DNA of 63,951 bases, counting the filler, from Kipferlia bialata (Eukaryota): NCBI GenBank assembly GCA_003568945.1. It is 7 parts of 6 records of this genome, joined end to end, with 100 filler letters (N's around TTAATTAATTAA, not from the genome) between each part and the next. Parts side by side here need not be neighbours in the genome. Positions count along the whole stretch, not along the records: positions 34,613 to 47,154 come from BDIP01001072.1; 6 more parts are not named here. One strand, 5' to 3'. Below, one piece after another: positions 2,996 to 49,364 of this stretch. Position 1 is the first letter of the stretch; every line of letters starts with the position of its first letter. Both the position numbers and the translations under genes were made by a program. The notes under the pieces are model-generated. The model saw nothing but the letters and a program-made list of their open reading frames with translations, ran no database searches and was not told the DNA's origin.

Positions 2996-3032
<37 letters not shown>

Positions 3033-3561
3033 GTGGGGGGGTATAATATGGGTGGCTATATCTATGTGGCAAACCGAGCAGGATACCCATCCATGCGATG
3101 TATATCAGGGTTTCTGTCTGTCTGTGCCCCACCCCCAGGTTGTTGACTACCTCGTTAGACAGGGCCAGTTTGACAGGGCTGCCTCAGTACTATCTGCCTT
3201 CATTCCCACATCGGCAGTGGACAGGTAGAGGGGTATTGGGGTATTGGGGTATTGGGGTATTGGGGTATTGGGGTACAGGGGTATACGGTAGTATGACAGT
3301 GGAGTGTATCATGTGTGTTGCACATCGGCAGTGGACTGGTGCCTACATGGGTGAATGGGCATGTAGATGGTGTTGTCAGTGAGATAGGGTTGTGTATCAG
3401 TTATGTATTGGTGCATTGTCACCTATTCCAGCTGACCGGCCGCTGATGTCAGGTGGGAGAGGTGGGTGTATGTGTTCACCGCCCGCCGTGCCCTGCCCTC
3501 CCTGCTGTCCACCATACCCCTCCCGGCCAACCCAGGGGACCCACAGCTCAGCACAAGGTGG

Positions 3562-3592
<31 letters not shown>

Positions 3593-12744: not shown

Positions 12745-14755
12745 CTGCTGCTCCCTCCTGGGGTCTGCGCCCAGCTTCCGTCCCCGTGTACCGACAGCCT
12801 CTATGCCCCCCACCGCTGTGCCGGGTATCCTGCCCTTGTCACTGGACGTGCTCTCGGCCTGCCTGCCTATCACCAGCCGGGCCTCCTCCTCCCTGCCTCC
12901 CTCTCCCTCGGCCCCCTTGGCAAAGGGAGACTCTCTCGAGAGGCAGCTGTACGCGTCTAGACTGACCCTGGAGATGCCGCTGCCGGCCAGGGCGAGTGTG
13001 GCGTCTGTGGATATGGATAAGGGGTGCAGGGAGGGGGCAAGGGCGTGCTTACCCTCGGGGCCCCTGAGGCATGCCGGACTGGATAGGGTGGGGATGGAAG
13101 GGAGGCTCTCCAGCCAGCACCCACCAGCGCCAGACACCCTAGAAGTGAGGGGGGGGTTGTATATATAGCAGGATAGAGACACCACCGAACGCTGTACCTG
13201 AGCCACCTAGTGGGTGACACGTGGAGACCAAACTCACTAGGGATTGTGGTGGGTAGGGGGCTCTTGACCGGGGTGTCGGTCTCTGCCTTAGCCTTGAGAC
13301 CAGGTCTGGGCAGGCGTCCGTACTGTCCGGGCCTGGCCCCTGGGATGAACAGGTCCCCTGTGATGGGGGGGAGGGAGGACATGCCTCCGAACAGGGGGGA
13401 CAGGGAGCGGCGGGGAGGGGGGGAGGGGGAGGTCTCTGTGTCTGAGTCCCTGATAACCATGTCAACATCGAGCCCATCCTTGATGTCTCTCAGTCTCTGC
13501 CTCTCCAGTGCCTCGAGGGATGTATCAGCATGGGGCCTCTCCCCTTCGTCCCCTCTCTCTTCAGCACCACCCGCACCCATCTCCACATCCCCACTAGCAG
13601 TGGCAGGGGGCATGGGTACATCACCCTCTCGCTCTTCCTCTCCCTCTGCCTCTGCCCCTCCCCTCCCCTTAGCCTTGGCCTCTTCAGGTTCCACATCTAC
13701 ACTCCCATACCTCTCCCCCTCTCTCTCGTAGCTCTCGACACCGGCCACTGTCCTGTCCCTCACGTTCCACCTGGCCAGATGCGATGTGTAGTGACAGTCA
13801 GAGAGGGGAGGGGGGGGTGTCTCCTTGGCTATGCCGGACTGGGTGATGCAGTACTCGGTCAGCACCATCAACTGCTCCACAAAGCGGTGCCTGGGGGTTA
13901 TGCATATATATATAGAGAGAGAGAGGTCCAGTCACACACAGACAATGCCAGTTGACATGAGAGAATGGGACATGCAGGGTGTATTGATTCCCCATATACA
14001 GACTACCACTACTTCCATATGCATATACCTCATCATGGACGAGTACTCCCCAGCAGCCATGCTCAGCGTGGATATCAGACCCCGGCAGTCAGCTGAGACA
14101 GCGCCTGGGGTTGGAGAAAGGGGGGGGGGGGGTTGACCACACACATACAATAGTACATACTTGGCTGACAAACACCATAGCAATTGTCTCCATACCTGGG
14201 ACCTCTCTGGGCAGCACTCTGCAGTAGTTGACCGGCAGCACATAGGGCCTGGTCCTTGTCTTCCTGCCCCCCTTCGCCGTCTTGGCCTTGCCCCTCTTAG
14301 GCTGCTTGGCCCTGGGGGGAGAGGGCACTGCGATCGGGGAGGCCACTGTGAGAGTGGCTAGACAGGACAGCATCTGGGCGGCATCCTCGATACCCTCTCC
14401 CTCTCCCTCTCCCTCTCCCTCGGACTCCCCCTCTGACTCGGCCTCAGCCTCTGCATCTGTCTTTCCATCCATCTCTGCTCTCTCCTTCTCCCTCTCTCTG
14501 TCAGCCACCTCCTGGGCCTCTTCCCTCAGCCTCTCTCTCTCTGTCTCGCAGTCCAGCAGCGCCCTCTCAAACCTAGTCACTATGTCCCTCTGGGCCAGGG
14601 TCAGGGGCAGCCGAAGAGACTCGTCCAGACCGTCTATCGAGTGGGCTGCCACCCAGTCTGCAGCTGGCCCAAGGGATGTATCGGGTTCAGGGGTCACCCC
14701 GAGGTGGAGAGGGTACCTCCCACCCTCTGTGACCTTGACTGCAGCGAATATCACC
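12745..14755 (-). CDS. Hypothetical acidic, low-complexity protein, internal fragment (about 4 exons: 14755-14196, 14104-14030, 13890-13197, 13137-12745)
   Basis: Long GC-rich frames bounded by GT-AG sites; no start, stop or recognisable domain. Confidence 0.6.
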
Positions 14756-14931
14756 TAAGGTCAGGGGGGGGGGGGGGGGGAGGGGGGGGCAGAAAAAAAA
14801 ACCCCCTATGTGTACATTCTTATCTCACCTCCTAGGAGTTTCCAGCACTTCAAGGATCAGACACTCCATTATACATTAGTATACTGTGTCTGTCTCCATA
14901 TATAGATGTGTATCACTCTCCTTACCTCTAG

Positions 14932-17344
14932 GAGTTCCAGCACCTCAAGGATGAGACCTACCTAGACTACACAGGCAGTGCACTCTACCAGAGAGGACAG
15001 TTGAGGGTGAGTCTATATACATGATCTATATATATCTAGAGAGAGAGATTGAGAGAGTGTGTGTGTGTATGTATCTTGACTTCACAGGCAGTGCACTCTA
15101 CCAGAGGGGGCAGCTGAGGGTATGGGAATAGATATGTGTACATTGTGTTGAGAGAGAGATGGGCACTCTTCTCTCTCTCTCTCTCTATCTCCCTCCCCTC
15201 CCCTATATAGGTGTGTATCTTATGTATACAAATCACCCCAGGAGATGTTCACCCAGCTGGAGGGCAACCTTCTCTCTCTCTCCATCTCTCCATCTCCTCT
15301 TCCTCTCTCCCTATATCTATCACGCTATATGTATTATCTACTATGTCTCCCTTATCCCAGGAGATGTTCACCCAGCTCGAGGGCAACCTGTTCTGCAACG
15401 CACACTCAGGTACATATATCCATAGCATATATACATATATATATATTGCAGAGAACTCCCTGTATTATACACTGGGGACATACATTATATATATTCTTAC
15501 CCCCAGACTCGTCGTGTTCGCAATGATGTCTCTATATAAATAGGTATATATGGGTTGGTAGATACATTTGATCTTATCCTACGTTTGTTCTTTTCCTTGT
15601 GTGTCTAGTCTCACCCTCTAGACTCGTCCTGTTCCATGAGGACTGAGGCCGAGGTGACCAGTGTCAGAAGGACAATCATGGACTGGTTCAACTGTGGAGG
15701 TATGTATACACATTTATATATATCTATTTACAATATTGTGTATACATGTCCTCGTTCTAGTAGCCAATCATGGGCTGGTTCAACTGTGGGGGTATATGAT
15801 GTGTATAATATATACCATAATGTGTATACATTCTCTCTCTCTCTAAAGGACAATGGACTGGTTCAACTGTGGGGGTGAGTCAGATTCTACTTTCGGTCTC
15901 TCTCCCTCTCTCTACCCCCTTATTCTTCAGACGACTACACTGTCATCTTCACCGCTGGTACCACTGCCTCTCTCAAGATGGTGGGAGAGACATTCCCATG
16001 GTCCGAGGTATGTACAGTCTAATATGCAATAGAACTAGAAGTCACTAACCTTGCTATCCTCTTACCCCATCCCCCCCCCCATAGCCTACATAGTGTATAC
16101 ACGTATGTATATGTACATTATGCACCAATTATCCTGTCTTCTTCTTACCCCAGCACTCCCTGTACGGCTACTCCAGACACAACCACAACTCAGTGCTGGG
16201 CATGAGGGAGCTGGCAATGGCTAAGGTATGGGGTATTAGTATTTGTTCATATAGTATATGTGTATATATTAATGTATACATACTCAGTGCTGGGCATGAG
16301 AGAGCTGGCAATGGCCAAGGTATATGTGTGTGTATATATACATTGGTGTGTCTAGACGTGCAGACCACTTACCCCCCATGGCTCCTCCTTCCTGGCAGTA
16401 GGGTCACATATACCAAACAACATATGGTATATGTACGTATATATGTATAGAGAGTATATAGGCAGGTGTATGTACTCACTCCCAGGGCTCCTCCTTCCTG
16501 GCACTGTGTACCTGTATATATTCATTCTTATACAGATATTATTAACACAGTGTATTGTAGAGTATTTACTGTCTACTACTTACTTACCCCCCAGGGCTCC
16601 TCCTTCCTGGCCGCAGAGTGGGACCTACAGGACCCAGAGTACATACAGCAGTTCATGCCCAAGGAGGTATGCATACATTAGTTGTAGAATACATATATAT
16701 ATGTTAATCTTCGTTTCATGTATCCTCCCTCACTCCCAGTCTGAGGAGGAGTCCTCTGAAGAGCCAGTGGAGCAGTTCAACCCAGAGGTACAATGCGTAT
16801 ATGTATATGTATGATGGGAATATGTAGGTGGATATAGAATATATAGGTGGTATTCACTCACTCTAGGAGACCCCTGCCCCCCTCAATGATGAGACCGAGG
16901 AGGCCTTCCACCTGTTTGCATTCCCCGCAGAGTGCAACTTCAGTGGCATCAAGTGAGTTATAGTGTCTTCTGTATTCACTATTCATTATACACATATTAT
17001 ATATATACCATCTATACTACATATATTCTGTCACCGAGGTGTATGAGCACATATGTCCTCGCCCTCAGATACCCCCTTGACCTTGTGCATGCTCTATCCC
17101 TCTCTCTCTGTCTCTCTCTTCATGTGTATATAGAATAGTATGTGTCCTTATTCCCAGGTACCCCCTGGACCTAGTGCATGCTCTCAAGAGAGGTACACTC
17201 GGAGAGCACCTACTGTCTAGGTAGTGTACCAGAGTATATACATACAGCACAGTGGTAAATGTGGATATATGTAATATATCTACTCCGACACCAGAGCCGT
17301 TGAGACCTCTGCCATGCCCCCTGGGTACAATGTCTCTCTCTCTC

Positions 17345-17384
<40 letters not shown>

Positions 17385-18285
17385 TGTAGTATACGTTTCC
17401 TTACCCTCCAGAGCCGTTGAGACCTCTGCCATGCCCCCTGGGTACAAGAACAGGACCAACACATGGAGAGTGTGTGTGGACGCTGCTGCATATGCACCCA
17501 CTAACCCACTCGATCTACAGGTACGCAAATAGTATATATGGATTTCATATGTACTATACATATGTATGAATATTACTTCTTTTTCCACTGGATCTACATG
17601 TGACTACCCACTATATATAGAGAGAGGCGTGTATTCAGTAATAGTATGTACGTGTATATATCCCCTCACCCCAGGCCTTCCCCGCTGACTTTGTCACCAT
17701 GTCCTTCTACAAGCTGTTCGGCATCCCCACAGGCCTGGGGGCACTACTCGTCAGGTAGTCTAACGTACTCAGTCCCTATGTATATATGTTCTTTAACAAA
17801 TACATGGATTGATTACCCCCCCTCACCCAGGAAGGACGTGGCACTCTATCCACTCTACATTGTACTTATATGTACCTACATATGTTCCTATGTATTTATA
17901 TCTCCCCCTCACCCCAGGAAGGACGTGGCACACTACTCCACTGCAAGTAGTATATAATACTATAAATGTATAACCCCTTTGAATATATATACGTATACAC
18001 CCCCCCCCCTCACTCCCCAGGAAGGACGTGGCACCTTTCATGAACAAGACGTTCTTCGGAGGAGGTATTGTTAGTACATGCACAAATACACATATACCCT
18101 GTTTACGAGAGGAATACACACCATTATACTATTCTCTCATTGTCTATTGATTACCATTGTTGTCTATCTTCCCCCTAGATAATACATGCTTTGGACGAGT
18201 ATACACATATATGTTGTGTTTCAATAACACTTGGGGTGTCGTACAGCATTTGTCTCACCCCAAGGCACTGTCGTTGCCGTGTCCT

Positions 18286-18320
<35 letters not shown>

Positions 18321-18724
18321 ACATATCCCTTATATTCAATACCTTACACACAGGCACTGTGGTTGCTGTGTCCTGCGACTCCTCCTTCTGCAAGCTGAGG
18401 TGAGGCTAAATATATATATCGTGGTACGATATTACTCCTCTGTTTAATACTTCTCTGACCCCAGACCCATCTCCAACGAGAGGTTCGAGGACGGCACAAT
18501 CTCATTCCTCGACATCATTGGACTGAGGTGTGTATAGTACTCTAACATCGTATATATATATATATATATATACCAATATATATATACCTATATCAATACA
18601 TATATCTATCTATATACATGAATATATATATAAATCATTGGGCTGAGGTATGTTTGTTTGTTTTACAATACATGGCAGTCAACCAATCGCCGGCTACAAT
18701 ACCTTCAAGTCCCTTGGAAAGCAG

Positions 18725-18760
<36 letters not shown>

Positions 18761-20748
18761 TCTCTCTATCTATATATATCTAGTATTTTTGTCTCGTTTT
18801 AACGCTGGCTTCAACGTGTTTGAGTCTCTCTCTCTTTCTCTCGCTATTTCTTTCTCTCTCTCTACATGATGATATCTAATATCAGTGCTGGCTTCAATGT
18901 GTTCAAGTCCCTTGGCAAGCAGGCCATCACAGACCATGTCTGGACACTCACCAGATACCTCTACTTGAGGGTCAGCGCCCTCAAGCACAAGTGAGTATAG
19001 TTGTGGGTATACATATATACATACACTATTACATATTACTACTACTACGTGATCACGTATATATCTCAGAGTCAGTGCCCTCAAGCACAAGTGTACTCCC
19101 CACACAATATGTTGATATAGAGGACTATCTAGTGTAAATATTGTACTCCATATATCTAGTATTATCTTTCTTACCCCCAGGAATGGCCGTCCCCTCCTAG
19201 AGATATATGGCAACCACGAGCACGGAGACCCAAAGAGACAGGTACGTATTCAAGTCTTAGTTGTAGATTGCTGAGCACGGAGAGAAGTATTTATCCTACG
19301 CCATTGGAATGTACCACTTTTCATGTCTCACTCCAGGGCGGAATCCTCTCCTTCAATGTCCTGTCGCCCAAGGGGCAGTACGTGCCATTCAAGATTGGTA
19401 CGGTGTTACTTTACTTGTAGTTCTTGACATTTATATTAAGTGTATATATTACTATGTACATTTCGTGTTTCTTCCTTACCACCCAGTGATGGAGGCTGCC
19501 AAGACCTCCAACCTCATCATCTCTCCCCTGTCAGTGATTACTCCAACCATACTATGTTCCTCCATAAATGTATTGATATATCCATATACACTAACCCCCA
19601 GTGATGGAGGCTGCCAAGACCTCCAACATCATCTCCTATCCCCTGCCAGTGATTACTCCAATCATACTATGTTCCTCTATATATATGTGTGTGTATGAAT
19701 ATATATACTAGTATTCTTACCCCCAAGTGATGGAGGCTGCCAAGTCCTCCAACCTTCTGGAAATGCATATACAATGATGCATAACTCATGTGTGTAATCA
19801 NNNNNNNNNNNNNNNNNNNNNNNNNNNNNNNNNNNNNNNNNNNNNNNNNNNNNNNNNNNNNNNNNNNNNNNNNNNNNNNNNNNCTTACCCCCATCCTTAC
19901 CCCCAGTGATGGAGGCTGCCAAGGCCTCCAACCTTCTGCTCAGGGCAGGGGCACACTGCAACCCAGGGGCCGCTTTTGGGTACGGGTAGTGAATAGATAG
20001 TATAGTTTGGGTAGTGGATATACAATTAATGGTATCGTATTATATAGTATCACCGTATACTTCCGGTGGGTTCTAGTGGACGTTCAATTTATGATAGACC
20101 ACTCTATACTCTTCACCTTTCCATCCCGATATACCATTAACATGAGTAACTGTACCCATATATATGCATGTGCACCATGTCATTATATCCTTCCTCTCAC
20201 CCCAGCTACCTGACGATCGAGGAGGAGGACGTCCAGACAATTCTGCAGGTATACAGTAGTGTATATAGTATATTATATATATATATATATATATTATTAA
20301 CTATTCCCTCCGTATGTTATTATGTACTAGTGTACCATGTATGCAAGTACTGTGTCTCCCTAGCTGTACTATGTATACCTTGTGCATATAATATATATAC
20401 CTTACTCCAGGAGCGTGAGTCCTGCCACGCTGGTGACGGTATGTGGGAGGGCAAGCCCCTGGGTAGCTGCAGGGCATCCCTGGGGTACCCTACTACAGTG
20501 ACAGATGGTATGTGCTAATACTGATGAATGGAAGTCACGATTATATATGTTCACCCCAGTCGACAGGCTGACCACCTTTCCCAATACCTATGTGCTATTA
20601 TATCCATATGTATATTCATATAAATATATGTGTGTGTGTGTGTATGTATATGTGTTTGTGTGCACATACTCTCCTCACCCCAGTCGACAGCCTAACCACC
20701 TTCCTCAAGGCCACCTACACAGACAGAGACATGCCCAAGGATATGTAG
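14932..20748 (+). CDS. Molybdenum-cofactor-sulfurase-like (ABA3/MOCOS NifS-type, class V PLP) protein, about 21 exons, 5'-incomplete, no MOSC domain
   Basis: Exon peptides [88 protein letters not shown] (PLP Lys), [33 protein letters not shown]; stop TAG at 20746-20748. Confidence 0.9.
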
Positions 20749-21466: not shown

Positions 21467-24400
21467 CTACACAATTGTCTGCTGCACACCCATATGTGAA
21501 ACAGAGGGTACATACACTGCGGCCTTCCTCTCTGGGTATACCAGCAGCATCAGAGACACATACTCCATAGTGTTCATGCAGATGTTGGAGAGGGACTTGA
21601 CCTGCGGATAAGAGGTGTACATACATATACAAAGATAGAGAGAGAGAGAGAGATACACACTCCATGGTGTTAATACATATGGTGGAGAGGGACTTGACCA
21701 ATGGTGGCATGAGAGATTAATGGAGAGAGAAAGGAGAGACACGCATATACTAATTACTTACACTCCTGATGCAACAACTATACACAAGTACACACATATA
21801 TATGAATATAAATGATTAGGTATACATATACATACCTCCTGACTGGGCACCCACCACTCCATCCTGATCAGGACGTACAATTATATAAACACATATACAT
21901 ATGTATATATATATATACACATATATGTATACCTCCTGTGATGGTACCCACCACTCCATCCTGATTAGGAAGTATATCAGCTTGGACCCGCCATATGTCA
22001 GGATGAACACGGGTAGAGCATACACCTTGGAGACCTAAGTATTAGGCCTAGTAGAGACAATGGTACTAAATATGATATATAAATATATACATTCATATAT
22101 AGGATACAAGATATATATATAATGATATATACATAGGTCAGGATGAGCACGGGGAGGGCATACATCCTGGAGACCTGGGTTAGAATTGCAAAGAGGGAGA
22201 GAGAGACAGACGCACAGAATACATGCATCTTGGAGTCATGACTGTATCATTGTTGAATACAATGGTATACAGACCAACATGTCTCTACCTTCTGTCTCTT
22301 GTGAGATGCCTCCTCTGTATCACTTCTAGTGAGCATATATACTAATGTATATACATACCAATATATATGTATAGATATATATATATACTGATCCTTACCT
22401 TCTGTCTCCTGTGCGATGTTTCGTCTGTGTCACTCCTGGTGGTGGAGAGGACAATCTTGCTCACACGCTTGGTGGATCGCCTGAGAAATGAGTAAATATT
22501 TACCAACCTTGATTCGCTATATAAATCATTCTGCTGTATGTACTACAGTACTATACATGCATATACATTGACATCAATGTATATATACCCAATCATGACC
22601 ATGACTAGCAGGATGACAGAGACGCATATAGAAATATACAAGAATACAGATATATTTATATATATACGTAAATATACAAAGAATATGTATATTACTATAT
22701 ACCTCCTCATTGCCACCTATGGTTATCAGTATGACAGACATTTACATACATTATGTATCTATATGTATATACTAATATATATATACATATGTATGTATAT
22801 ATATATATATATATATATCTGTACCTTCTCATATATAACTGTACCTTCTCATTGCCACCATAACCACTAGGATGACAGACAGATGCATGATCTGCAGAGT
22901 GCCCAGGATTTGGTACAGGGCAGACACCTGGTTCATATGGGTATCCTAAGGGTAAAATAGAATACTATATATATACATAGATATATATATATGTGTATAT
23001 ATGGAGAAGGAGATTAGTAACAAAGCGGGAGAGAGAGAGAGATTGAGTTGCACAGTATATGTGAGGCAGAGCTGCAGAGAGAGATGTTAATATTTATATG
23101 TGTTGTATAAGTGTAAGCAACCACATACCAGTGCCTCCTGTGTATCTGTCTCATGTTCTTTGACCCATGTGAAGTCCCACACAAAAAGGGTCACAGTGAC
23201 CACAGCCAGGACGGCACAGACAGCTGTACTGATATCAGTATCAGATGCACATATGAATATATATCTGTGTGTATATGAGAATGATGAATCTATACAGACT
23301 ACCACAGCCAGGATAGCACAGACGGCAGTGCCGATGTGAGTTAAGAAACCAAAAACTAATCATATAAATATATGAGAATATAGAGATACAGTACTACAGC
23401 CAATAGGGCACAGACAGCAGTGCTTGAATGAGCGTATTACTTGGAGTATATCTATATTCCACCTCCATCATATACTACAGATACTGATACTGATACATCA
23501 TGAAGTATCATTATTTCACAGATAGAAACTTGACCATGTGGGTCATACCTTGTTCGTGTTATGATATATAATACAATATATTATATATTTATATTATACA
23601 TATTATATATACTTGACCATGTGGGACATGCCTTGTCCGTGTGATGCGTCTGAAGGTACGTGTGCTCCTGAGCCCACGGAACACCTGGGGGTTAGAGTTA
23701 ACGATATATGTCTATGATATCTGATGAATATGTGTAAATGTTTTTACATGTGGCAGAGATACTATGTGGGGAGTGCAGTGACACAAGAAACATTTACATG
23801 TATACATTAGACATATATTGTAGTGGATGCATATGAATAGCACTATCTACCTCGGGCAGAGTGGCATTGTCATGAGCACTGTGACTTCAAATACTATATA
23901 GAATACAGTAAAGACTATAAAGACTATATATACTGCATATACTACAACAATATAAAGATTACATTTACATNNNNNNNNNNNNNNNNNNNNNNNNNNNNNN
24001 NNNNNNNNNNNNNNNNNNNNNNNNNNNNNNNNNNNNNNNNNAGATCTGTACCTGTATAAATATCAGGCAGAGTGGCATTGTCATGAGCACTGTGACACCC
24101 GAGGTCAGGAATGTGAAGGTGGGATCCCCTGAGTGTAAGTATATAGAAACATATACAAATAGAGAGAGAGAGAGAGAGACAGTGGCACCCGAAGTCAGGA
24201 AGGTGAAGGCGGGGTCACCTTAGTGTAAGGGTATGTATAGAGAGAGAGAGAGAGAGATAAGAATCATCTGTTTCGAGACATACATTGCTTGAAACATACC
24301 GAAGAATCCGTACACCTCACTTGGCCAAAAGAAGTACGCTGCCACGATGACACCCGTGAATGTACTGGGGGTTAGAGGGTGTAGTGAATGAAATGAAATC

Positions 24401-24740
24401 ATTGAGAAGTGAGAGGGTGGGGGTAGATATATACAAAAATTGGCTATTGATATATTCCTCATGTATCGGATACCACAAGTGATGTATACAGAGAGACTTT
24501 GTGTTATACTTCACAATACGTATAAATATATATATACGTATACATATATATATACATATACCTCATTGCACATGCCACTGTGATGTATCGGATACTATAT
24601 GTGCTATCCTATATATCATACTTCCCTCTATGCACATATAGATATATATATATATATATATATGCTTATACTTATATATACCTCATTGCACATGCCACTG
24701 TGATGTACTGGAGACCGGCCTTGGACCAGTGGGTGGTGCT
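21467..24740 (-). CDS. Multipass membrane protein of unknown family (possibly 7TM-like), 5'-incomplete
   Basis: Successive hydrophobic exons: STFTGVIVAAYFFWP, FTFLTSGVTVLMTMPLCL, STAVCAVLAVVTVTLFVWDF, LYQILGTLQIMHLSVILVVMVAMR, VYALPVFILTYGGSKLIYFLI, MEYVSLMLLVYP; stop at 21467. Confidence 0.65.
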
Positions 24741-30624: not shown

Positions 30625-33600
30625 CTGGTGACGGAGGTCGCCTCAGAGAGGCCGGGGACTGAGACCCACCGGCCACACCACCTCTAGGAGCAATAGAAGA
30701 GGGAGACTGATGCCGCACATGTGACTGCGGTGTCCTCACCCTGCCTGACCCCTGGGGGGTCCTCACCCTGCCACTACCAGGAGTCCTTGCCCGCCTGCTA
30801 CCACCGGAGGACACACCATCATGAGCCCTCCCTGACCCTGACCTAGTATCAGTATCAGCATCACTATTAGTATCATATATACATACTGATACTGACCCTG
30901 ACCTGGGTGGCACAGGGGTAGACAGGGATGGGGTTCTAAGGTGAGTGGTACCGTCTCTCCCCCTCTCAGGAGTCTTGGAACCCTTGCGAGGGGACCTTCT
31001 TGACTGGGGGGTTACAGAAACTCTCTCCCTACTTGGACCATGTCTCTCCCTTTCCCTTTCTCTAGTGGGCGTATCCATCTCCCTCTGTCTAGAGGGTGTA
31101 TGTCTCTCCCTCTCTCTTGTGGGTGTGACATGTACAGATGGTGTTGTCACAGTAGCAAGGGGGATGTCCCTCTCTCTATCTCTCTCCCCGTCTGTTGAGT
31201 CATCAGGTGAGCTGGCCTCTCTCTCTACCACTCCCCCCCTGTCTCTAGTGGGTGATACCGCCTCCCTCTCCCTCTCCCTCTCTCTAGTGGATGTGACATG
31301 CACTGTCTGAGCCAATGCTCTCTCTCTCCCTCTACTCTCTGTTTGAGCCAGTGCCCTCTCCCTTGCATACAAGACAGCATCCCTCACTGGGGCAGAGGCA
31401 GAGAGAGTGAGAGGGGCAGAGGGGGAGAGAGCCACAGTGCCCCTGATGGAGACTGGGGAGGCACCTCTCTCTCTCTCCGGCTGGCCCCTTATGGGAGAGA
31501 GAGTGTTTGTGCCGGGAGACACCAGACTCTGCATCAGCAGGGCGCTGATCTCCACCTCAGCCTCTCTCTCTCTCTCACTCTCAGTCTCAGTCTCAGAGTC
31601 TGTGGGTTCGTCTCTCCTCCCGTCTCCGTACCCCTCACCCAACTCATCCGCACTCTCTCCCCCTCCCCCTCCCCCTCCCATATACATATCCCCACCTCCT
31701 CCCATATGCATGGCTGATACATCGAATGAGGAGGAGGAGGAGGTTGAGGAGGAGGGAGAGACAGCGAAGGAGTGGAAGGAGGAGTCCGAGGAGGAGCCGT
31801 CAATCATGACCTGAAGGTTAGAGAGAGGGAGAGTCAGGAAAGGAAGAGTCAAAGGCGGATATAGCAACCAGATGGCACCGAGAGAGAGCTGGGATAGAAA
31901 TAGAGATCGAAATGACAGAATGACCGTATGTTGGACCCGATCCTCACTCTTTGGTATCACAATGTAATACCAATCAATAATAATATATATGTGTCCATAT
32001 TTGTGTATACAAGAACTAATATGTATATGGACTGTAGTACCTGATCCTCACTCTCTGGTATAACAAAGGATGGGGAGTCCACACCAGGTGACACATCGTA
32101 CTGGGATAAGAGGGGAGAGACAGAGATAGTGGGTAGCAGATGACTCTCACACAGAACCGAGAGAGTAGGGGGTGGTCAGTATTCGGTCACTCAGAATAAT
32201 AATGAGAAGGGGAAGGGACATAGAGAGAGAGAGTACCTGTGAGAGTCTCTGCCTGCGTCTGTGCCTTAGCATAGGGTGCCACTGGGGTCAGACAGAGATT
32301 ATATTACCCATATATATATATATGTATATATACCATATACTGTGGCAGAATATGGGGTGCCACTGGGGTCAGACAGAGACAGATATATACATATATATAT
32401 ATGTATATATACCTGACTATCTGGTGTGTGTATCCTATGCCTCCTGGTTGGTGTGGCTGATGGGTGACCACCTATATATATATACGTATATTCAGATATA
32501 TATAAATACCTGACTGTCTGGGGTATGTATCCTATGCCTCCTGGTTGGCGTGGCTGATGGGTGGGTGGCAACCATAGCCGCACGCATGCCACGCTCCTTC
32601 TCTCTGATTAGACGCTGGTGGTGAGAAGGGTGAGAGGAGAAGAGAGGGAGGGAGCAGAAGAGGGAGGGAGGAGGAAGGGAAGGAGGGAGGGGGGGGGGGG
32701 GGATTTGCAACGATAACTGCATGTAAGGTTTCCAGTAACCATATGGGAAGGCACAACCTAACTGAGGGACCTTGCAATGTGAGCAATATAACATCAGTAC
32801 CGACCAACCTCAAGTACCGATACCTATTCAATCCTCGACACTCATCCAAACAGACACACCCTATAATCACTCGTAATATGTTACAGAGCACTGTACCAAC
32901 CATATTAAGACACATAGCTACATATAGGACACTATGGGAAGAGTACCGGCAAGTATACAATTGGCGGTACCGACATGTCTCGGTACCGGTAGCACTCTAT
33001 CTTCATATCCCCCTTCATATACACGCCTAGACGCCTAAAGAGACTATATACAAGCACTAGGTTCAACAACTAAGCGTATAGGATGGTATACACAGAGTAT
33101 GACACTAGGCAGTACCGATACCTGTTTCAGTACTGACAGACCCCTCCCTATAAATATCCACTATACACACACCTACACACCAATAGAGAATATATACAGG
33201 CAATAGGGTCGACACATATGGGTTAATAGTGGTGGTATCCACAGAGTTATGTCAATAGTACCGATACCTGTTTCAGTACCGGCAGCACCCTGCCCCCATC
33301 TGCCCTGACACCAGAGGGAACCATGCCCCTCCTGTCAGCTCTGATGCAGGATGCAATGGAGGGTATGCCGGGTATCCCAGGTGGAGACCCCCCTCCATCC
33401 ATTTGGGTCAAAAGTGGGCGGTACCGGTACCGATACCAAACACTCTCTGTCGGGGGTTACACCCCCTCCCTCCCGTAGACCACACGCACCTGTGCTACTA
33501 GCACTGCTGGGCGGCTGAGGCTGACCCTGGATATCCTTGGGGTGTGTGGTGATGGGACACAGTGGTAGAGAAGGTGACATGATTTCGAGGTTCCATTTCC

Positions 33601-34703: not shown

Positions 34704-37700
34704 GCGTCTCCACGCCTCCATACACTCTGTGCACTCACCCTCCATGGGACTGGGGTCAGGGAGAGAGAGGCCTATGTCTCAAGTGCGGAAGACACAGGTA
34801 TGGTGTTGTTCTATTCACGTGTATCTATATATGATGTGTAGATTCATTCCTACTGTCATATATACTCACTCTAGGCTATGTATGAGTCCTCTGTGCAGTC
34901 CATGCTGACCAGCTCTCATATCTATCTATCTATCTACCTAGATATATACATGTCTATACACTCACTCAAGGCCCTGTATGAGTCCTCTGTCCAGTCCATG
35001 CTGATAGGGGATATATATTTATATATAGTGTATATACATACTATCATATGTATACTAACACTAGGCACTGTATGAGTCCTCTGTCCAGTCCATGCTGACA
35101 GGGGATATATGTATCTATATTATATACATACCCACAAGTATATATATAGTATATATACCTACTATCATATATACACATATACTAACACCAGGCACTGTAT
35201 GAGTCCTCTGTGCAGTCCATGCTGACAGGGGATATATATATATATCTATATAGTATATATACATACTAATATATATACACACTAACACTAGGCACTGTAT
35301 GAGTCCTCTGTCCAGTCTATGCTGACAGGGATATATCTATATAGTATACATATCCACAAGTATATATATATATATAGTGACACTTACCCTAGGCCTTGTA
35401 TGAGACCTCTGTCCAGTCCATGCTGATAGGGGATATATATACCTTCACATATGTATATACACGTAGTAGTATGTATATATATAGTATATACTTACCTTAG
35501 GCCCTGTATGAGTCCTGTGTCCAGTCCATGCTGACAGGAAGTGATGAGACTACAAGTCAAGAGATGGAGGAGAGGAGAGTGAGGTATATATAGTGTATAT
35601 ATATATACATAGAGAGAGAGACAAAGGGGGAGAGAGAGAGAAAGACTGACCAGCCAAGAGATGGAGGAGAGAAGAGTGAGGTATGTGGTGTTTGTTTAGA
35701 GAGAGCGATAGAGAGTAAGATAGGGAGAGAGAGAGACAGGGACTGATTGGTGATGTGCATGAGAGGAGAGGGTATAGAGTATAGAGAGAGGGAGAGGGAG
35801 AAAGAGAGAGAAGGTCAGGGACTGACGAGCAATGATAACTCTTCTTCTGTCGCTCTCTATTTGTTGTGTACTATATATCCCTGTTACTTTCCAGTGTCTC
35901 TCCCTTCCTTGTATATCTATCCCTCACCACCCAGATACCTTGAGGACCTTGGCTATGGCGATGTGGCCAAGCAGATATTGGAGGTATACTATATGTATAT
36001 ACATGTAGTGAATACATGAATTATATTGTGCATACCTACAAGGCCTATGGCGATGTGGCCAAGTAGATATTGGAGGTATATATGTATATGTAGTCTCTAG
36101 TGTATATATACATACCCTTGTGAAAATCATGGTTTGAAGATGCTATGATGTCGCCAAGGAGATCATTCATTTGTGAAGAACAACGATACATTTGATTAGT
36201 TTGTGCACATACACACACGCTACCCCTCCCCTCACCCCCCAGGCCTCCCCTGCCACTATATGGATATATATATATATATATATATATCGATATATGAAGA
36301 CATATTACAGCTCTCATGCACTCTATATATCTGCACTCTACACCCACTACCCCCAGGCCTCCCCTGCCCAGCCCAGCCAGATACAGACACCCATCAAGAA
36401 GAGAGGTATATATATATATATTNNNNNNNNNNNNNNNNNNNNNNNNNNNNNNNNNNNNNNNNNNNNNNNNNNNNNNNNNNNNNNNNNNNNNNNNNNNNNN
36501 NNNNNNNNNNNNNNNNNNNNNNNNNNNNNNNNNNNNNNNNNNNNNNNNNNNNNNNNNNNNNNNNNNNNNNNNNNNNNNNNNNNNNNNNNNNNNNNNNNNN
36601 NNNNNNNNNNNNNNNNNNNNNNNNNNNNNNNNNNNNNNNNNNNNNNNNNNNNNNNNNNNNNNNNNNNNNNNNNNNNNNNNNNNNNNNNNNNNNNNNNNNN
36701 NNNNNNNNNNNNNNNNNNNNNNNNNNNNNNNNNNNNNNNNNNNNNNNNNNNNNNNNNNNNNNNNNNNNNNNNNNNNNNNNNNNNNNNNNNNNNNNNNNNN
36801 NNNNNNNNNNNNNNNNNNNNNNNNNNNNNNNNNNNNNNNNNNNNNNNNNNNNNNNNNNNNNNNNNNNNNNNNNNNNNNNNNNNNNNNNNNNNNNNNNNNN
36901 NNNNNNNNNNNNNNNNNNNNNNNNNNNNNNNNNNNNNNNNNNNNNNNNNNNNNNNNNNNNNNNNNNNNNNNNNNNNNNNNNNNNNNNNNNNNNNNNNNNN
37001 NNNNNNNNNNNNNNNNNNNNNNNNNNNNNNNNNNNNNNNNNNNNNNNNNNNNNNNNNNNNNNNNNNNNNNNNNNNNNNNNNNNNNNNNNNNNNNNNNNNN
37101 NNNNNNNNNNNNNNNNNNNNNNNNNNNNNNNNNNNNNNNNNNNNNNNNNNNNNNNNNNNNNNNNNNNNNNNNNNNNNNNNNNNNNNNNNNNNNNNNNNNN
37201 NNNNNNNNNNNNNNNNNNNNNNNNNNNNNNNNNNNNNNNNNNNNNNNNNNNNNNNNNNNNNNNNNNNNNNNNNNNNNNNNNNNNNNNNNNNNNNNNNNNN
37301 NNNNNNNNNNNNNNNNNNNNNNNNNNNNNNNNNNNNNNNNNNNNNNNNNNNNNNNNNNNNNNNNNNNNNNNNNNNNNNNNNNNNTAGGCCAGCCCAGCCA
37401 GATACAGACACCCATCAAGAAGAGAGGTATGCATATATACATACATTGTATGTGTATAAGGACTCAGAGAGTGTTATCCATGGGCAAGACTACCAGTATG
37501 GCAATGAAGAATAGGCATTGCATATATGGCAAAACATACTGTTCACATTCCCCCAAATAATGCTGATATATATATTTCTGTTATGTCCTCTTTCCCCTGA
37601 CCCCAGGTCGGAAACCTGGGAGTCTGGCCATTGTGAACAGAATCAGAGACAGGTACGAGTGTGTTGTATATGTATGTATATGTTCGGCCTAGTAGGACCA

Positions 37701-42238: not shown

Positions 42239-42337
42239 AATCTCTATATCTCACCCCAGGAAGAGTCTGACGACGACTGCATCTCCTTTGACTGCTCCGA
42301 TGAGTATGGGGGGGAGGCAGAGGAGACAGACGACGAG
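34704..42337 (+). CDS. Ulp1/SENP (peptidase C48)-like protein with an AT-hook; many small exons, 5'-incomplete
   Basis: Spliced motifs DWLNDEVVN, CYSSFFYQSL...YAATRRWS, DVLCIPVNWNNTHWTCIVADF (catalytic His; Asp in VADF/YYDS region), CIMYYDSLGG; upstream KKRGRKPGS. The canonical QxNxxDCG motif was not found. Confidence 0.82.
34874..35540 (+). repeat. Array of 7 copies of acceptor plus exon 5' part (GCnnTGTATGAGTCCTCTGTsCAGTCCATGCTGA), period about 95-125 nt
   Basis: Copies at ~34875, 34970, 35064, 35191, 35291, 35393 and the intact exon at 35501, separated by AT-microsatellite spacers. Confidence 0.92.
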
Positions 42338-42564
42338 GTGGGGCAGTTATGTGTGTATCACTATATCTATAGATGTCCCCCCCCCCCCTCTCTCTCACTG
42401 TCCCGCCCCCTCCAACCTGGGCTCTCATGTAGTATATACCAGAATATATATATAATTATATATATACCCCCCCCCCCCCCCCCCCTCCCGTACTTGTTGT
42501 TTCCATATATGGTTCCCTGGCATAGTTTCTCTCTATGTGTCTGTCTCTCTCTCTTACCATCCAG

Positions 42565-43248
42565 ATGGTTCTCTCACTAGGAAAGTTCCCTGAGACCGAG
42601 AGCGTCAACCTCGAGAAGCTAGGTAACTCTCTCTGTCTGTCCTCTCTGTCTCCCTATATTGCCCTCCATATGTACATTATATACTTGGCACATACTGTGT
42701 ACTTCGCCTTGACCTCAATGGCTTGGTACTTTCTCTCTGTTCTATCTCTGTGTCTCTGTGTATATGCGGGTTCATACACTCTTTGTCCTCTGTACTGTAG
42801 TACTCCATTCTCTCCTCTCTCCCCTGTCTGCTTGCCGAAGGTATCTCTTCTGTCACCCATATATATATCTTACCCCAAGGCATGCCCCCCCCCCCTCTCT
42901 CTCCCCATCTCTATCCATCCACGCGTATATGTACTATAACTCATACACCTCCCTTCTGTCTCTCTCTAGACCCTTATTCTCAGGCAGCCGCAGGATGGAC
43001 TCCGCAGACAGGGGTGCCTTCAGAGGCGCCACAGTCGCAAGGTACCATACATGTATGTATGTATTTCTGTACATATTAAGAGGGAAGGGGGAAACAGTGA
43101 CATTATATAAGTGTCACCATTTCATTCATTTCTTTTCTTTTGTATGTGCCCTCAGTCTCTCTTACCCCCCCCCCCCCCCACGGGATGTCACCTTCACCCC
43201 ATTAATAATTTTCCCTCTCTTTCCCCATTTTCTGAGTGAATACATGAT

Positions 43249-43287
<39 letters not shown>

Positions 43288-43921
43288 GCCCCTTATTCCC
43301 AGGGATGCCATGGTCAAGGCACTCAAGGAGAGAGGAGCAGGTATGATATCTGAACATATTTATATGTATATCTATATATATTGTGTATAGGAGAAGGGCG
43401 TTTACGCAGGATATGGATAAGTGTATATGAAGGCAATCAAGGAGCAGGTATGATACATGTATGGATATATATATATATAGTGTAATGATTGCCCAATGAC
43501 GTACCATGTCATATATATATATATATATATATCTACACCCCTAATGTCAGACAAGGCCCTTGTTCACATCGAGCAGTACATCCCCCACCTGCTTGCCATC
43601 CAGGTACCTTATTCTAATGATTGCCACCTTATTCTAATGAGTTCCATATATACATTTGCATACGTATGTGGAATGAGGTACTCATATTATATAGAATGCA
43701 CTAATCCAATAGAACTGGGTGAAGGAGCACCGGTTCAGTGAATGTTCAGTTGCATAATAATATTACTATTTCATAGGTGTATAATTTACACTATTCTAAT
43801 GGGCGCTAGCACTAATCCAATAGAACTGGGTCAAGGAGCACCGCTTCAGTGAGGACAAGGACAAGAGCAGGCAGTACGGCACCATGCCCACATTCAAGTG
43901 GAAGTCATGCCTCAGGTATGG

Positions 43922-43959
<38 letters not shown>

Positions 43960-46292
43960 TGTACTTGTATGTATTCATTTAGACATCTTAAATACTATGT
44001 AGACTATATAACTATAGGCAGGCTAGTGAAAGTCATGTCTCAGGTACAGCTAATCTAATGATACTAATCTAATGAGTGTTGTTGCATATTCTATAGACCC
44101 TATTCTAATGACCTTATTCTAATGACTTCAGGTCCAAGAACAACTGGCACGGTGTGGCCACCCTCGAGTACGAGTACCTCATGGTGGTCTACGCCAAGGT
44201 ACTCCCCCCCCCCTCTCTCTTTACACCGATAGCTCTCTCTCTCCCTCTACACCCTTATATTCAGGCCATGTGTCTCATGGACTCCGCTGCTGACAAGATC
44301 AGGGTCATCGACAACGAGGCCAACGTGGGTATGTAGTAATTTCTCTCTCTCTCTAGAGAACACTATTAATGTAATTTTGTCTCCACCGTTGCTCTCTCTC
44401 TCTCTCTCTCTACACCCCTAATATGTAGGTGAGAACTACACCGTTGCCTCCAAGCAGCTCTGCCAGGCAGCTGGATTGTTCATGAAGGTCAAGGAGCTGT
44501 CCATCGAGCAGGTAATATAGTATATATGTATATGAATGTATATACATATATATATGTATGTATGTTGTATTTACATAAATATACATAATGAATTGTAGAT
44601 ATTATATTTTTATAGTTCTTGGACTGTTCATGAAGGTCAAGGAGCTCTCCATTGAGCAGGTATACACTACATAGTATATAGTATATATGTGAATTATTTA
44701 TATAGAGTTTCATATTGATTTATATGAGACTTGGTATACTGGACTGTTCATGAAGGTCAAGGAGCTCTCCATTGAGCAGGTATGCACTTTAGTATACAAT
44801 GTATATATATATGCTAATTGTATTATATATTCTAATGTCCAGGGTTCCATGGTTGCCGGCCACCCCCTCATCATCATATATATATATATATATATGATGT
44901 GTTGTTCTATATTCTAAAGAGTTCTCTACATACATGCATTTATATGTATACACATATAATTATTATTACTTTTTATTATATACAATTATTATGACTTTAT
45001 TATTATACATACTCCATTTACCCTCCAGGGCTCCATGGTTGCCGGCCACCCCCTCATCATGATACCCGTGGTGGCAGACTTCATGCTCAGGTACTGTATA
45101 TAGAGTATATCCACAACAGCGGTCCCCCCCACAGCCTCCCTCATCCTCACCCACCAGTCTCTCCATTCTCTCTCTCTCTCTCTCTCTCTCTTAGACCCTT
45201 AATGTCCAGCCTCTCCATTGCCTACGCCGAGCTCTGCAGAGTCGAGAACAACATCCGGTATGTGAATATGAGTATCCTGCTTCCCTTCTCTCTCTCCCCC
45301 CCCCCTCTACACCCTTATTCCCAGTGCCCTCCTTGAGATCAACGATGCCCCCAAGTCTCTCTCTCTCTCTCTCTCTCTCTCCTCGTCTACACCCTTATTC
45401 TCAGTGCCCTCCTTGAGATCAACGATGCCCCCAAGTCCCCCAAGATGAACCTCACACTCCCTAGGGTGTGCAAGGACATCCAGGTGTGTATTCACATAAA
45501 TACATACATATGCAAATTGTAAAATACAATTACATATATGTATCTATATATGTATTCTACTTTATATATATGTGTGCATATGGACCCAAGATGAACCTCA
45601 CCCTGCCTAGGTGTGCAAGGACATCCAGTTACTCTCTCTGTCTCTGTCTCTCTCTCTCTATTATTACTATTGATGTGTGTATAGTAGAGTTGAGAGTTAC
45701 TCTAACGACCAGAACAAGCTGCAGCAGGCTGCCTTCAGTGTGCAGGCAGTGGCCGCCCAGGACTGGCAGGTATGAATCTCTCTCTCTCTTACTCTTAGTC
45801 CATCAACCCTGCCATCCGTGACTCCCTCGACTACTTCTCTCTCCCTCTCTCTCTCTCTCTACACCCTTATCTGCAATAACATCAGTCCATCAACCCCGCT
45901 ATCCGTGACTCCCTAGACTACTTCAGCCAGGTGGCAGAGATCATCTCATGCTGCTTCCAGGGCAGGTATGTGCATGCATGAAGTAATTATACTTTGAATT
46001 AGGGTGTAAGCCACATACATACACTTAGTATATGTACTGTATATATATATTTCGTCCTCTCGCTTACCCTCCCAGGCACCACTACTCCCTTATAGTAGTA
46101 TATGTATATGTATATGTAGTATTCTAATGATCAGGCACCACTACTCCCTCAAGGAGACCATGGAGGGTGGAGAGGCACAGTGCGTGGGAAAGGCACTTGC
46201 CTACATGAGGTATGTATTGTATATATATATATATATATACAGAGAGAGAGGCACAGTGCGTGGGAAAGGCACTTGCCTACATGAGGTAGATA

Positions 46293-46330
<38 letters not shown>

Positions 46331-46858
46331 TGCGGAGGCAGGGCACTTGCATACATGAGGCATGTTATTTTCGCCCCTCTCTCCCTCTGTTTCCCTCTTT
46401 CTCTACACCCTATCTCTCTCGCACTACACCCTTAATGTCAGGAGGGCCAAGGAGGTCAGGGATGCCCTCAAGGCACCCAAGGGGACAGACAAGGTATGTA
46501 TATGTATAATTATGTATATGAATGTATATACATACCCAAGGGGACAGACAAGGTATATATATGTGTGTGTATATACATATATTCTCAGTCTGAGAGGCAA
46601 CAAGATCCCAACATTCATTAACGAGAGTATTGTATTCTTTATAGTGTATCTGTTTTATTTTGTGTTAATCTGGCACCTATCTAACCACCTAGATCCTTGC
46701 CAACCGTTACAATGACTTGTGGCCAGTCTATCTCTCTTTCTTTCTATGTGTGTATGCTATTCTCACAATAGATCCTCTACAAGCGCTACAACGACGTGTG
46801 GAGAGGCAACAAGAAGCAGGCGTCTCTGCTTGACGGGGAGCTGGCTGAGTACGTTCTC

Positions 46859-46893
<35 letters not shown>

Positions 46894-46996
46894 CCTCTAC
46901 ACCCTTTTCTCACCCCAGGTACGAGGAGAAGAACGGCAACATCTACCACCACCGTGTCCCATCCACCCAGAACATCACATTCCCCGCTCCATACAG
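42565..46996 (+). CDS. BRO1-domain (BROX-like) ESCRT-associated protein, 3'-incomplete
   Basis: Spliced peptide includes FPETESVNL, IEQYIPHLLAI, PTFKWKSCL, TLEYEYLMVV, ASKQLCQAAGLF, LSIAYAELC, CVGKALAYMR and YEEKNGNIYHHRVP, matching the BRO1 FxW, YE, AAGxF and NxxIYxxxVP signatures. Confidence 0.85.
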
Positions 46997-48512: not shown

Positions 48513-49364
48513 ATGGCCCGTGGATTCAGTCTGTTCAGTGGAAAGAAGGTCCTAGCGCTTGATGTGGAGTGTGTTGCCAATGGAAAGGGGCACAACGACC
48601 GTGTTCCTTGCTGGGTGAGTCCAATTTTGGGACCTAAACTGTAAATATTCTTCTCTGACAACAGGTGGTGATTGTCAACGAGAAGGGCAGGGTACTACTC
48701 GACCTCAAGATCAAGGTTACTGACATGGTGTCGCCGCTCACCAGGTAAGAGTGTCTCTGAGAATTTATGTAAATCAGTCTCATCGTGAGATACGTGGTTC
48801 CAGCATTCACTAACCACTGTATACAAAAGTACTCTTGATGGCCTCAACGAAAGGTTTTCCGGTGTCACCGCTGCTATGCTGCGGAGCGCCCTTCCCCTCG
48901 ACACCGTGATGCGTAGGGTTCACAAGGTCCTCAATAGCCCAGCCATCACTCTTGTCGGCCAGAGCATTGAGAACGACATTGCCTGGCTCGGTCTGGAGAA
49001 GGGAGTGCATTACGGTGACAGCGAGGACATCGCCGAGCATTTCCGTACCTACAACGAGAAGTACAAGGACTACAACTACTTTTCCCTCGTACAGACGGCC
49101 TATGGGCTCCTCGGGACCTCCATCCAGTCCACTGCCCACTCTCCCATCGAAGACGCCAAGACAGCCATGCGGCTGTATGTGGAGTGGATCAAGACAGGAC
49201 GGGATGCTGAGGGAGGGGCCCGGTTGACCCGAATGCGCTACAAGAGGCAGTTCCCCCAGGAGACGATGCCCACGGATATCCACTGTGACGGGGTGTGCGG
49301 TGCCAAGTACCAGCAGGCCAGGTGCATATGTGGCCAGCCTTGTGTGGAGAGGAAGAGAGAGTAG
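48513..49364 (+). CDS. Rex4/ISG20-like DEDDh 3'-5' exonuclease with a Cys-rich C-terminus; 3 exons
   Basis: Exo I VLALDVECV, then LTRFSGVT, Exo II LVGQSIEND, Exo III HSPIEDAKTAMRLY. Introns at ~48615-48665 and ~48746-48852. Confidence 0.88.

Follow-up and report, generated by a model that had tools for sequence, protein, structure and literature searches.

The window studied here, 63,951 bases made up of short contigs from the genome of Kipferlia bialata, a free-living fornicate protist rich in introns, carries a BRO1-domain gene (hereafter BRO1) on its plus strand. We found that introns of this gene repeatedly end in variants of one acceptor module. The shared motif is real, lies well above chance, and is clustered in the gene, not exclusive to it. 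The pattern is best read as same-gene copying of introns limited to their 3' ends, set within a turnover of splice sites that is pervasive and, it appears, has not been described before. All statistics below refer to 13 genes of this window, BRO1 and 12 others, with 128 acceptors (16 in BRO1 and 112 in the other genes).

The acceptor module of BRO1

An earlier note, made from the sequence alone, had listed 12 sites in BRO1 as intron 3' ends sharing an extended motif. All 12 are present within a few bases. Eleven of them end spliced introns, 10 lying within the last 35 nucleotides (nt) and the site of intron 5 being displaced by a 14-nt tandem repeat; the site at 45306 fails as an intron end and is a skipped duplicate of that at 45387. 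The pattern YTASMCCCTWA has 10 matches in the window at a chance mean of 0.81: eight on the plus strand of BRO1, one on the minus strand of BRO1 intron 13, and one at 15912, which agrees with the single occurrence reported outside the gene (~15911). A second motif, ATTCTAATG, has seven matches in the window, all in BRO1 and on the plus strand (chance mean 0.67). Its recurrence was likewise borne out, with true starts at 43611, 43631, 43793, 44102, 44116, 44829 and 46121; two pairs of these are tandem repeats, and thus about five of the seven are independent.

At acceptors, the module occurs in 10/16 cases in BRO1 compared with 1/112 in the other genes. A looser pattern gives 10/16 and 3/112 (Fisher p = 9e-9), and the broadest one takes in 14/16 BRO1 acceptors and 5/112 others. 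With 1-3 of the 112 non-BRO1 acceptors carrying it, the motif is not equally frequent elsewhere in the window. The description of the motif as gene-specific stood as clustering and fell as exclusivity. Contigs of a DNA run match the intron-6 module and then pass into unlike sequence (at least 11 up to 44265 and at least eight up to 44257), and at least two others diverge in this way at 46444. As these contigs match the module over ~25-30 nt and then diverge, the module is present at other loci.

The comparison of the last 30 nt within and between genes, which the earlier note had suggested, was run on the genes of the window and placed within-gene similarity above background. By local alignment of positions -30..-3 (n = 122), acceptors of the same gene were more similar than those of different genes (z = 8.1, p = 0.0002), and the excess persisted without BRO1 (n = 106, z = 3.7, p = 0.0008). 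Neither donors (+3..+30; p = 0.11, BRO1 z = -0.5) nor intron interiors (-70..-43; p = 0.10, BRO1 z = 1.2) showed gene similarity. Of 16 similarity tests, eight at the acceptor end had p < 0.05, two upstream of the branch were null (0.07 and 0.13), and one of the six on donors and interiors was marginal (donor, 0.045). The post hoc choice of words was corrected for by comparing the best gene-enriched k-mer of each gene with permuted labels over all genes and k-mers (n = 113 acceptors, eight genes). After the correction, BRO1 was significant for k = 5-8 (p = 0.001-0.012), its enriched words being ACCCTT (7/16, p = 0.001), CTACACC (p = 0.001) and TAATG (p = 0.012). Weaker dialects were found in the gene at 148-6249 (TGACC in 7/14 acceptors, p = 0.015) and in that at 14932-20748 (CTTACCC in 5/21 acceptors, p = 0.022), and the same label-permutation test found none in the remaining five of the eight genes.

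Two origins had been suggested for the motif. The first, in which introns of a gene have their 3' ends copied or homogenised among themselves, is supported by the within-gene similarity, by a nested series of variants, and by a 15-nt module piece at the 5' end of intron 4 (below). Local propagation of introns is not: donors and interiors are unshared and neighbouring introns show no extra likeness, leaving the spread of whole introns unsupported, and two acceptor types are found at one junction. A post hoc contrast between module and other introns in phase 0 (2/11 vs 4/5) and a depth pile-up at 44172-44323, which gives no copy number, were not used.

The BRO1 model is based on a spliced contig and a deposited protein. 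The 1251-nt contig of run X2 is confined to BRO1 exons and contains GT..AG joints that the DNA run is without; X2 was taken as RNA by guess, and no run is recorded as RNA. It gives at least seven joints (introns 1, 4, 6, 8, 10, 11 and 12). Introns 5, 13 and 16 were placed by contiguous alignment coordinates, and the remaining ones are consistent with these coordinates and the deposited protein.

The ordinary acceptor in the window consists of YTNAC, a short C-run and YAG. In BRO1, the predicted branch A is followed by T in 11/16 acceptors and preceded mostly by a CT-run (8/16) and TA[C/G]ACCC. The variants align as a nested series of shorter forms around one unit of ~28 nt. The fullest form, at intron 5, reads TAGACCCT-ATTCTAATGA-CTTCAG and unites the two motifs noted earlier. 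Introns 4, 12, 14 and 16 have the module or its relic followed by a further branch/AG piece. At introns 8 and 13, and less clearly at 12 and 15, a module-type and an ordinary acceptor are found at one junction, their order in intron 8 being the opposite of that in 13, which suggests that the module has been gained and lost at existing positions by replacement. From this anatomy we infer common descent of the copies rather than convergence. In 122/128 acceptors the A of the best YTNAY-like pentamer precedes the AG by 4-6 nt, a figure that is partly circular as the acceptor caller favoured these distances. The features are as follows.

42565..46996, +: BRO1-domain gene, 17 exons in the window and at least one further exon outside (spliced contig and deposited protein)
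BRO1 exons 1-9, +: 42565-42622, 42984-43041, 43303-43340, 43551-43603, 43824-43915, 44132-44198, 44265-44328, 44429-44511, 45029-45090
BRO1 exons 10-17, +: 45210-45257, 45405-45483, 45713-45769, 45886-45965, 46135-46209, 46442-46493, 46772-46848, 46919-46996
42966..42983, +: module acceptor of intron 1, spliced (spliced contig, pattern)
43285..43302, +: module acceptor of intron 2 (pattern)
43533..43550, +: module acceptor of intron 3 (pattern)
43606..43640, +: two tandem copies of a 15-nt module piece, ACCTTATTCTAATGA, directly behind the intron-4 donor, where no acceptor could lie; same sequence as 44111-44125
43698..43741, +: skipped copy of the intron-4 acceptor and the first 29 nt of exon 5
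43786..43823, +: 3' end of intron 4, a module relic (ATTCTAATG at 43793) with a different, used acceptor downstream
44025..44045, +: skipped copy of the exon 5 end with donor
44093..44131, +: module acceptor of intron 5, fullest form, TAGACCCT joined to ATTCTAATGA, with a 14-nt internal tandem repeat
44247..44264, +: module acceptor of intron 6, spliced; matched also by contigs of other loci
44410..44428, +: module acceptor of intron 7
44620..44782, +: two skipped copies of the exon 8 end with donor (44620, 44739), three differences each, all synonymous
44829..44878, +: skipped ATTCTAATG-type acceptor and 36 nt of the exon 9 start; the used acceptor (45028) is ordinary
45191..45209, +: module acceptor of intron 9
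45307..45357, +: skipped module acceptor and 33 nt of the exon 11 start; 80-nt tandem duplication
45387..45404, +: module acceptor of intron 10, spliced
45585..45629, +: skipped copy of the 3' part of exon 11
45780..45837, +: skipped ordinary-looking acceptor and 39 nt of the exon 13 start, three differences, all synonymous
45859..45885, +: 3' end of intron 12, spliced; module, then a second branch/AG piece
45999..46009, -: inverted module-like match in intron 13, which may be chance
46058..46090, +: skipped ordinary acceptor and 15 nt of the exon 14 start
46121..46134, +: acceptor of intron 13, ATTCTAATG type
46246..46361, +: two skipped copies of the exon 14 end
46403..46441, +: 3' end of intron 14, a partial module (46403), then a full module (46424)
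46534..46554, +: skipped copy of the exon 15 end with donor
46680..46725, +: older skipped acceptor and diverged copy of the exon 16 start (found by eye, under the script threshold; spanned by a DNA contig)
46897..46918, +: 3' end of intron 16, a module with its branch A lost, then an ordinary CTCACCCCAG acceptor
15912..15930, +: only clear module-type acceptor of the window in a gene other than BRO1 (pattern match and gene model)

At the 3' end of intron 11, the codons of 45690-45712 stay open in the reading frame of the following exon, and the stretch may once have been exonic before the acceptor shifted.

Truncated copies of exon ends

The skipped sites of BRO1 belong to a pattern seen across the window. 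Searching each exon against its two flanking introns, we found 137 dead copies: 67 of exon starts in the upstream intron, 59 of exon ends in the downstream intron, one of an exon start downstream, and 10 internal. Truncated copies of the adjoining exon end are present in 66/120 introns, and BRO1 has 13 of the copies. None of the 137 reaches both exon ends. They are mostly 17-48 nt long, with 36-164 nt of filler between the nearest copy and the live one and a median spacing of 127 nt over all copies. Their splice sites are largely intact, AG being present in 55/67 start copies and GT in 57/59 end copies; 80% of the 55 dead acceptors score above the 10th percentile of real acceptors, compared with 2% of 137 random intronic AGs. 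Live and dead copies are ~90% identical within the exon, but immediately past the splice site into the intron identity falls to 39%, with random pairs at 28%. Likeness of at least 12 nt into the intron, the look of a simple tandem duplication, was found in only 15/112 pairs (8/55 acceptor and 7/57 donor pairs).

The differences between dead and live copies spare the protein. In 62 series, covering 99/137 copies in genes with stop-free models, 98/2100 0-fold sites (4.7%) and 94/512 4-fold sites (18.4%) differ, a ratio of 0.25 (bootstrap 0.18-0.34); in two externally modelled genes the ratio is 0.22. Simulated neutral decay gave 0.47-0.55, with a minimum of 0.36 in 240 runs and about 0.5 under AT-biased mutation too, and plain neutral decay of tandem duplicates was rejected. 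Changes private to single dead copies are also biased (35/1282 vs 21/297 sites), and divergence does not rise in copies farther from their live exon (rho 0.09, p = 0.49). Given the intact sites and the protein-sparing differences, such a relic has the look of an exon end that was in use until recently, together with a working splice site of its own. The X2 contig, by its joints, skips the dead acceptors of introns 4, 8, 10 and 12.

Some loci outside BRO1 have further peculiarities. In the Ulp1/SENP-like gene, one intron (34798-35500) contains six copies of the start of the next exon, each with an acceptor, and the six acceptors change stepwise and always inside the consensus. The only complete copy of the exon at 26620-26555 (-) is preceded by TG, not AG, whereas AG is retained by four truncated copies upstream of it; the exon may be divided among copies, be served by another acceptor, or reflect an error. 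Local repeats are nearly all direct, with 2273 direct and 36 inverted 12-mer matches within 1500 nt.

The data behind these counts are uneven. Reads were mapped on BRO1 only, and 11/13 gene models are our own predictions without read support; that of the Ulp1/SENP-like gene follows the deposited protein. The gene finder called dead exon copies as exons, which were taken out by hand. The genes at 21516-24738 and 30625-33402 and the 5' part of the ABC transporter gene have frame breaks and were excluded from the 0-fold/4-fold counts and kept in the acceptor tests. The gene at 48513-49321 was excluded wholly, and the exon without AG (26620) contributes no acceptor. Pfam labels were obtained for three neighbours, a Vps8/Vps41-like RING gene, a MIF4G gene and the ABC transporter, of which only the last passed the curated cut-off; two further neighbours may, by resemblance, be MOCOS-like and Atg18-like. 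A 41-residue query from BRO1 returned solely a deposited K. bialata hypothetical protein with Ulp1 protease and BRO1 domains (Pfam), the BRO1 part of which equals our exon model. Single BRO1 exons as queries had no matches in Pfam, Rfam gave none at gathering score, no shorter BRO1 relative scored among 1266 candidates, and the 83 and 137 pattern matches in two metagenome scans included no confirmed relative.

The deposited model joins Ulp1 and BRO1 into one gene (42337-42565), but the spliced contig opens with 30 letters ahead of the BRO1 start for which the window gave no match; a misjoin of the contig at the poly-C run at ~42467-42490 may be the cause, or the 30-letter leader may come from elsewhere, including by trans-splicing. 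In the MIF4G gene (12168-12145, -), the acceptor at 12144 leaves little space for an upstream exon and the first exon was not located. Two opposite-strand genes, both without 5' ends, meet at a poly-G/A/C run at 14755-14840, a probable misjoin. In the window, 97/119 exons end in AG and 80/119 start with G, and phase 2 is unusually frequent among introns (phases 0:1:2 stand at 38:17:32 in seven genes).

Proposed splice-site replacement and its alternatives

We propose that the module is a predicted branch-point/acceptor end, and that its copies are homologous and have spread between existing BRO1 introns as a by-product of splice-site replacement, a reading we regard as evenly balanced between right and wrong. 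A break would arise inside an exon, the sole well-matched stretch between alleles, and repair would copy the exon end and ~40-160 nt of intron from another template before rejoining; the incoming splice site would become the working one, and the old site would be stranded in the intron. The usual template would probably be a diverged allele, which would explain the synonymous bias, and survival only of products with one whole exon between acceptor and donor would explain the polarity of the copies (starts upstream, ends downstream). Capture from alleles alone cannot make different introns alike, implying that the acceptor part would occasionally be taken from another intron of the same gene, with a template switch at a CT-run or AG. 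Its template would most likely be nascent or excised intron RNA of the gene itself, otherwise DNA; the limitation of the pool to one gene and to 3' ends fits intron RNA slightly better than hopping of DNA. Repeated rounds would give a gene its "dialect", extreme in BRO1. Stranded sites would probably be passed over because an acceptor would pair with the first donor downstream of it (exon definition), or else degradation might remove their products. Splicing of intron 10 passes over a full module acceptor that lies 67 nt past the donor and uses the twin at 147 nt, which suggests pairing across the exon, unexpected at a median intron length of ~230 nt, although rare or degraded forms stay hidden in contigs.

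Several observations weigh against this proposal. Ungapped and branch-anchored tests for BRO1 were weak or null (z = 2.0, 0.5 and -1.4), and live acceptors were no more gene-typical than dead ones (6.83 vs 6.61, p = 0.17). Adjacent introns resembled each other no more than distant ones did (BRO1 p = 0.86; Stouffer z = -1.2 over eight genes), and stepwise hopping between neighbouring introns was rejected on this ground. Outside the last 35 nt, shared 12-mers per million numbered 0.9 within genes and 1.7 between them, and exon-end matches in same-gene non-adjacent introns were 2/3052. Copies spanning a spliced exon-exon junction were 0/120, by which templates of spliced complementary DNA were rejected. 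Near-saturated intron flanks beside 18% divergence at 4-fold sites are hard to obtain from alleles alone, no second allele was seen at the BRO1 locus in the DNA run, and no other strain was found in the metagenome scans. The sample is also limited to 13 genes, 11 of them on our own models.

The module could instead descend from a founder intron that spread within the BRO1 transcript by reverse splicing, its donors and interiors later being overwritten and the 3' end alone retained. With 14/16 acceptors having some part of one unit, rapid turnover of intron sequence, and a density of 14.3 introns per kilobase (kb) of coding sequence that needs many lineage-specific gains, this has a basis in the gene, and same-gene intron pairs are described in passages on Oikopleura (PMC3879977) and fungi (PMC3609843). 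We nevertheless think it unlikely: donors and interiors are not gene-similar, four other genes are equally intron-dense (12.2-14.6 per kb) without such a module, two junctions have both acceptor types, and direct repeats at BRO1 intron boundaries are at most 6 nt. Moreover, under fast saturation of free positions, an old relic would not remain identical over 11 nt in five places. The upstream piece could also be a functional element kept or gained by selection: CUACAC/UAGAC could be an extra docking site, for U2 small nuclear RNA (snRNA) or an RNA-binding protein, that aids weak branch sites and allows gene-level control. CUACAC would pair with GUGUAG of the canonical U2 snRNA. The motif is strand-specific with its position fixed just ahead of the predicted branch site, its sharing is limited to acceptors and lacks a distance effect, and the module is also found at other loci, all as selection would have it. 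The idea is nonetheless improbable in our view, as same-type weak-branch acceptors of other genes are mostly without the piece (CTACAC occurs three times in 3696 nt of acceptor zones), the TAGAC and TAGCC variants break the proposed pairing, intron 8 uses an ordinary acceptor and skips the module-like one, and the 15-nt copy behind the intron-4 donor and the relics upstream of newer acceptors are left unexplained. In the passages of PMC6679479 drawn on here, no K. bialata snRNA candidates were found.

Two further explanations were considered. Chance resemblance arising from CT microsatellites and a short degenerate acceptor consensus has in its favour that BRO1 introns are the most CT-rich of the window (CTCT 0.043 per base vs 0.007-0.035), that half of the BRO1 acceptors have a CT-run, and that the motif was picked post hoc. 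None of the enriched words ACCCTT, TAATG and ATTCTAATG is microsatellite sequence, however, and with the family-wise permutation p-values of 0.001-0.012 and the null interior control (BRO1 z = 1.2) this explanation is largely refuted in the window and very improbable. An assembly artefact stringing together alleles or reads might produce tandem copies: nearest copies are separated by roughly the length of a short read (over all copies the median spacing is 127 nt), gaps and probable misjoins at poly-C/G runs occur in the assembly, the copy at 37389 lies across an N gap, and the DNA run is possibly the assembly's own source. Against this, four unbranched contigs of that run pass through dead copy, filler and live exon with no differences, at depth 424-440 and with no other letters, and the module precedes different exons. 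We rejected the artefact on the unbranched, difference-free contigs and consider it barely conceivable.

Replacement with same-gene acceptor transfer might extend to a genome-wide splice-site treadmill, in which exon ends are overwritten from diverged templates, more than half of introns hold fossils, acceptors move within the same transcript, and new introns arise when filler supplies both ends. This wider claim is tentative, and we lean towards its being wrong. Intron gain and sequence turnover is an open question, and the genome paper, in the part drawn on here, leaves open whether the 124,912 introns of K. bialata are ancestral or of its own line (PMC5874029). In-place replacement and same-gene acceptor transfer, if true, would be a route of intron-end evolution apart from introners. 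Were the treadmill true, the ~125,000 introns would come largely from ongoing turnover and not from an ancestral state, and splicing in a short-intron protist would follow strict exon definition. The stranded sites also offer a natural experiment on how splice sites are chosen.

Comparison with known systems

Searches of the open-access literature, not extending to subscription journals and genome-paper supplements, turned up no account of acceptor dialects or of exon-end relics in Kipferlia. U12-type introns are defined by a GTATCCT 5' splice site and a CCTTRAY branch site. They were rejected, as GTATCCT is present in 0/128 donors; CCTTRAY is found at 2/16 BRO1 acceptors and one other, at a distance of just 4-5 nt from the AG. 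Coding-like exon copies inside flanking introns are also a feature of mutually exclusive tandem exon duplicates. The copies here differ in being truncated, in having one splice site only, and in their absence from the sole spliced contig seen, although contigs drop rare forms. The K. bialata genome paper favours ancestry of the 124,912 introns and allows lineage gain, and its main text is without the string "duplicat" (PMC5874029).

Introns are known to be gained through tandem duplication and through break repair (PMC3443670, in the passages cited), and the local direct exon duplications with filler resemble these routes. The difference is that here a splice site is mostly exchanged at an existing intron and a truncated relic is left, and that relic and live exon differ in the manner of two sequences that were once functional. 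Direct repeats across intron ends are in slight excess (3.43 vs 3.24 nt, p = 0.0005). Separately, an 84-nt intron of the ABC transporter gene (55014-54931, -; acceptor GAG) has a 14-nt direct repeat across both splice sites, which is a signature of intron gain by tandem duplication. Introners, as far as they are described in the passages drawn on (PMC9860276, PMC3879977, PMC3609843), similarly bring repeated sequence to spliced introns and to other loci. They show likeness along most of the intron; here no full-length family was found, shared 12-mers are confined to the 3' end, and the clumping in one gene is strong. Two introner surveys give 0 introner families for K. bialata in the parts of their supplementary tables drawn on (PMC9860276, PMC12130899).

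Same-gene intron copies are known as rare whole-intron pairs from passages on Oikopleura (PMC3879977, PMC4122922) and fungi (PMC3609843). As in BRO1, sequence is common to introns of one gene, and reverse splicing or in-transcript transposition has been proposed there. BRO1 has the same concentration in one gene and lacks near identity of whole introns: the pairs are near-identical throughout, whereas 10-14/16 BRO1 introns share the last 20-30 nt only, with unrelated donors and interiors and older skipped splice sites beside the used ones. Fused branch-point/3' splice sites are reported from Giardia, Spironucleus and Trichomonas (PMC6679479). In the passages of that paper drawn on, they resemble the acceptors of this window in having a branch-like YTNAY a few bases before the AG and, in Spironucleus, a shared pyrimidine motif upstream of the branch site. 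One strict consensus serves the few introns of the genome there, whereas the acceptor motif of the present window is loose and varies from gene to gene.

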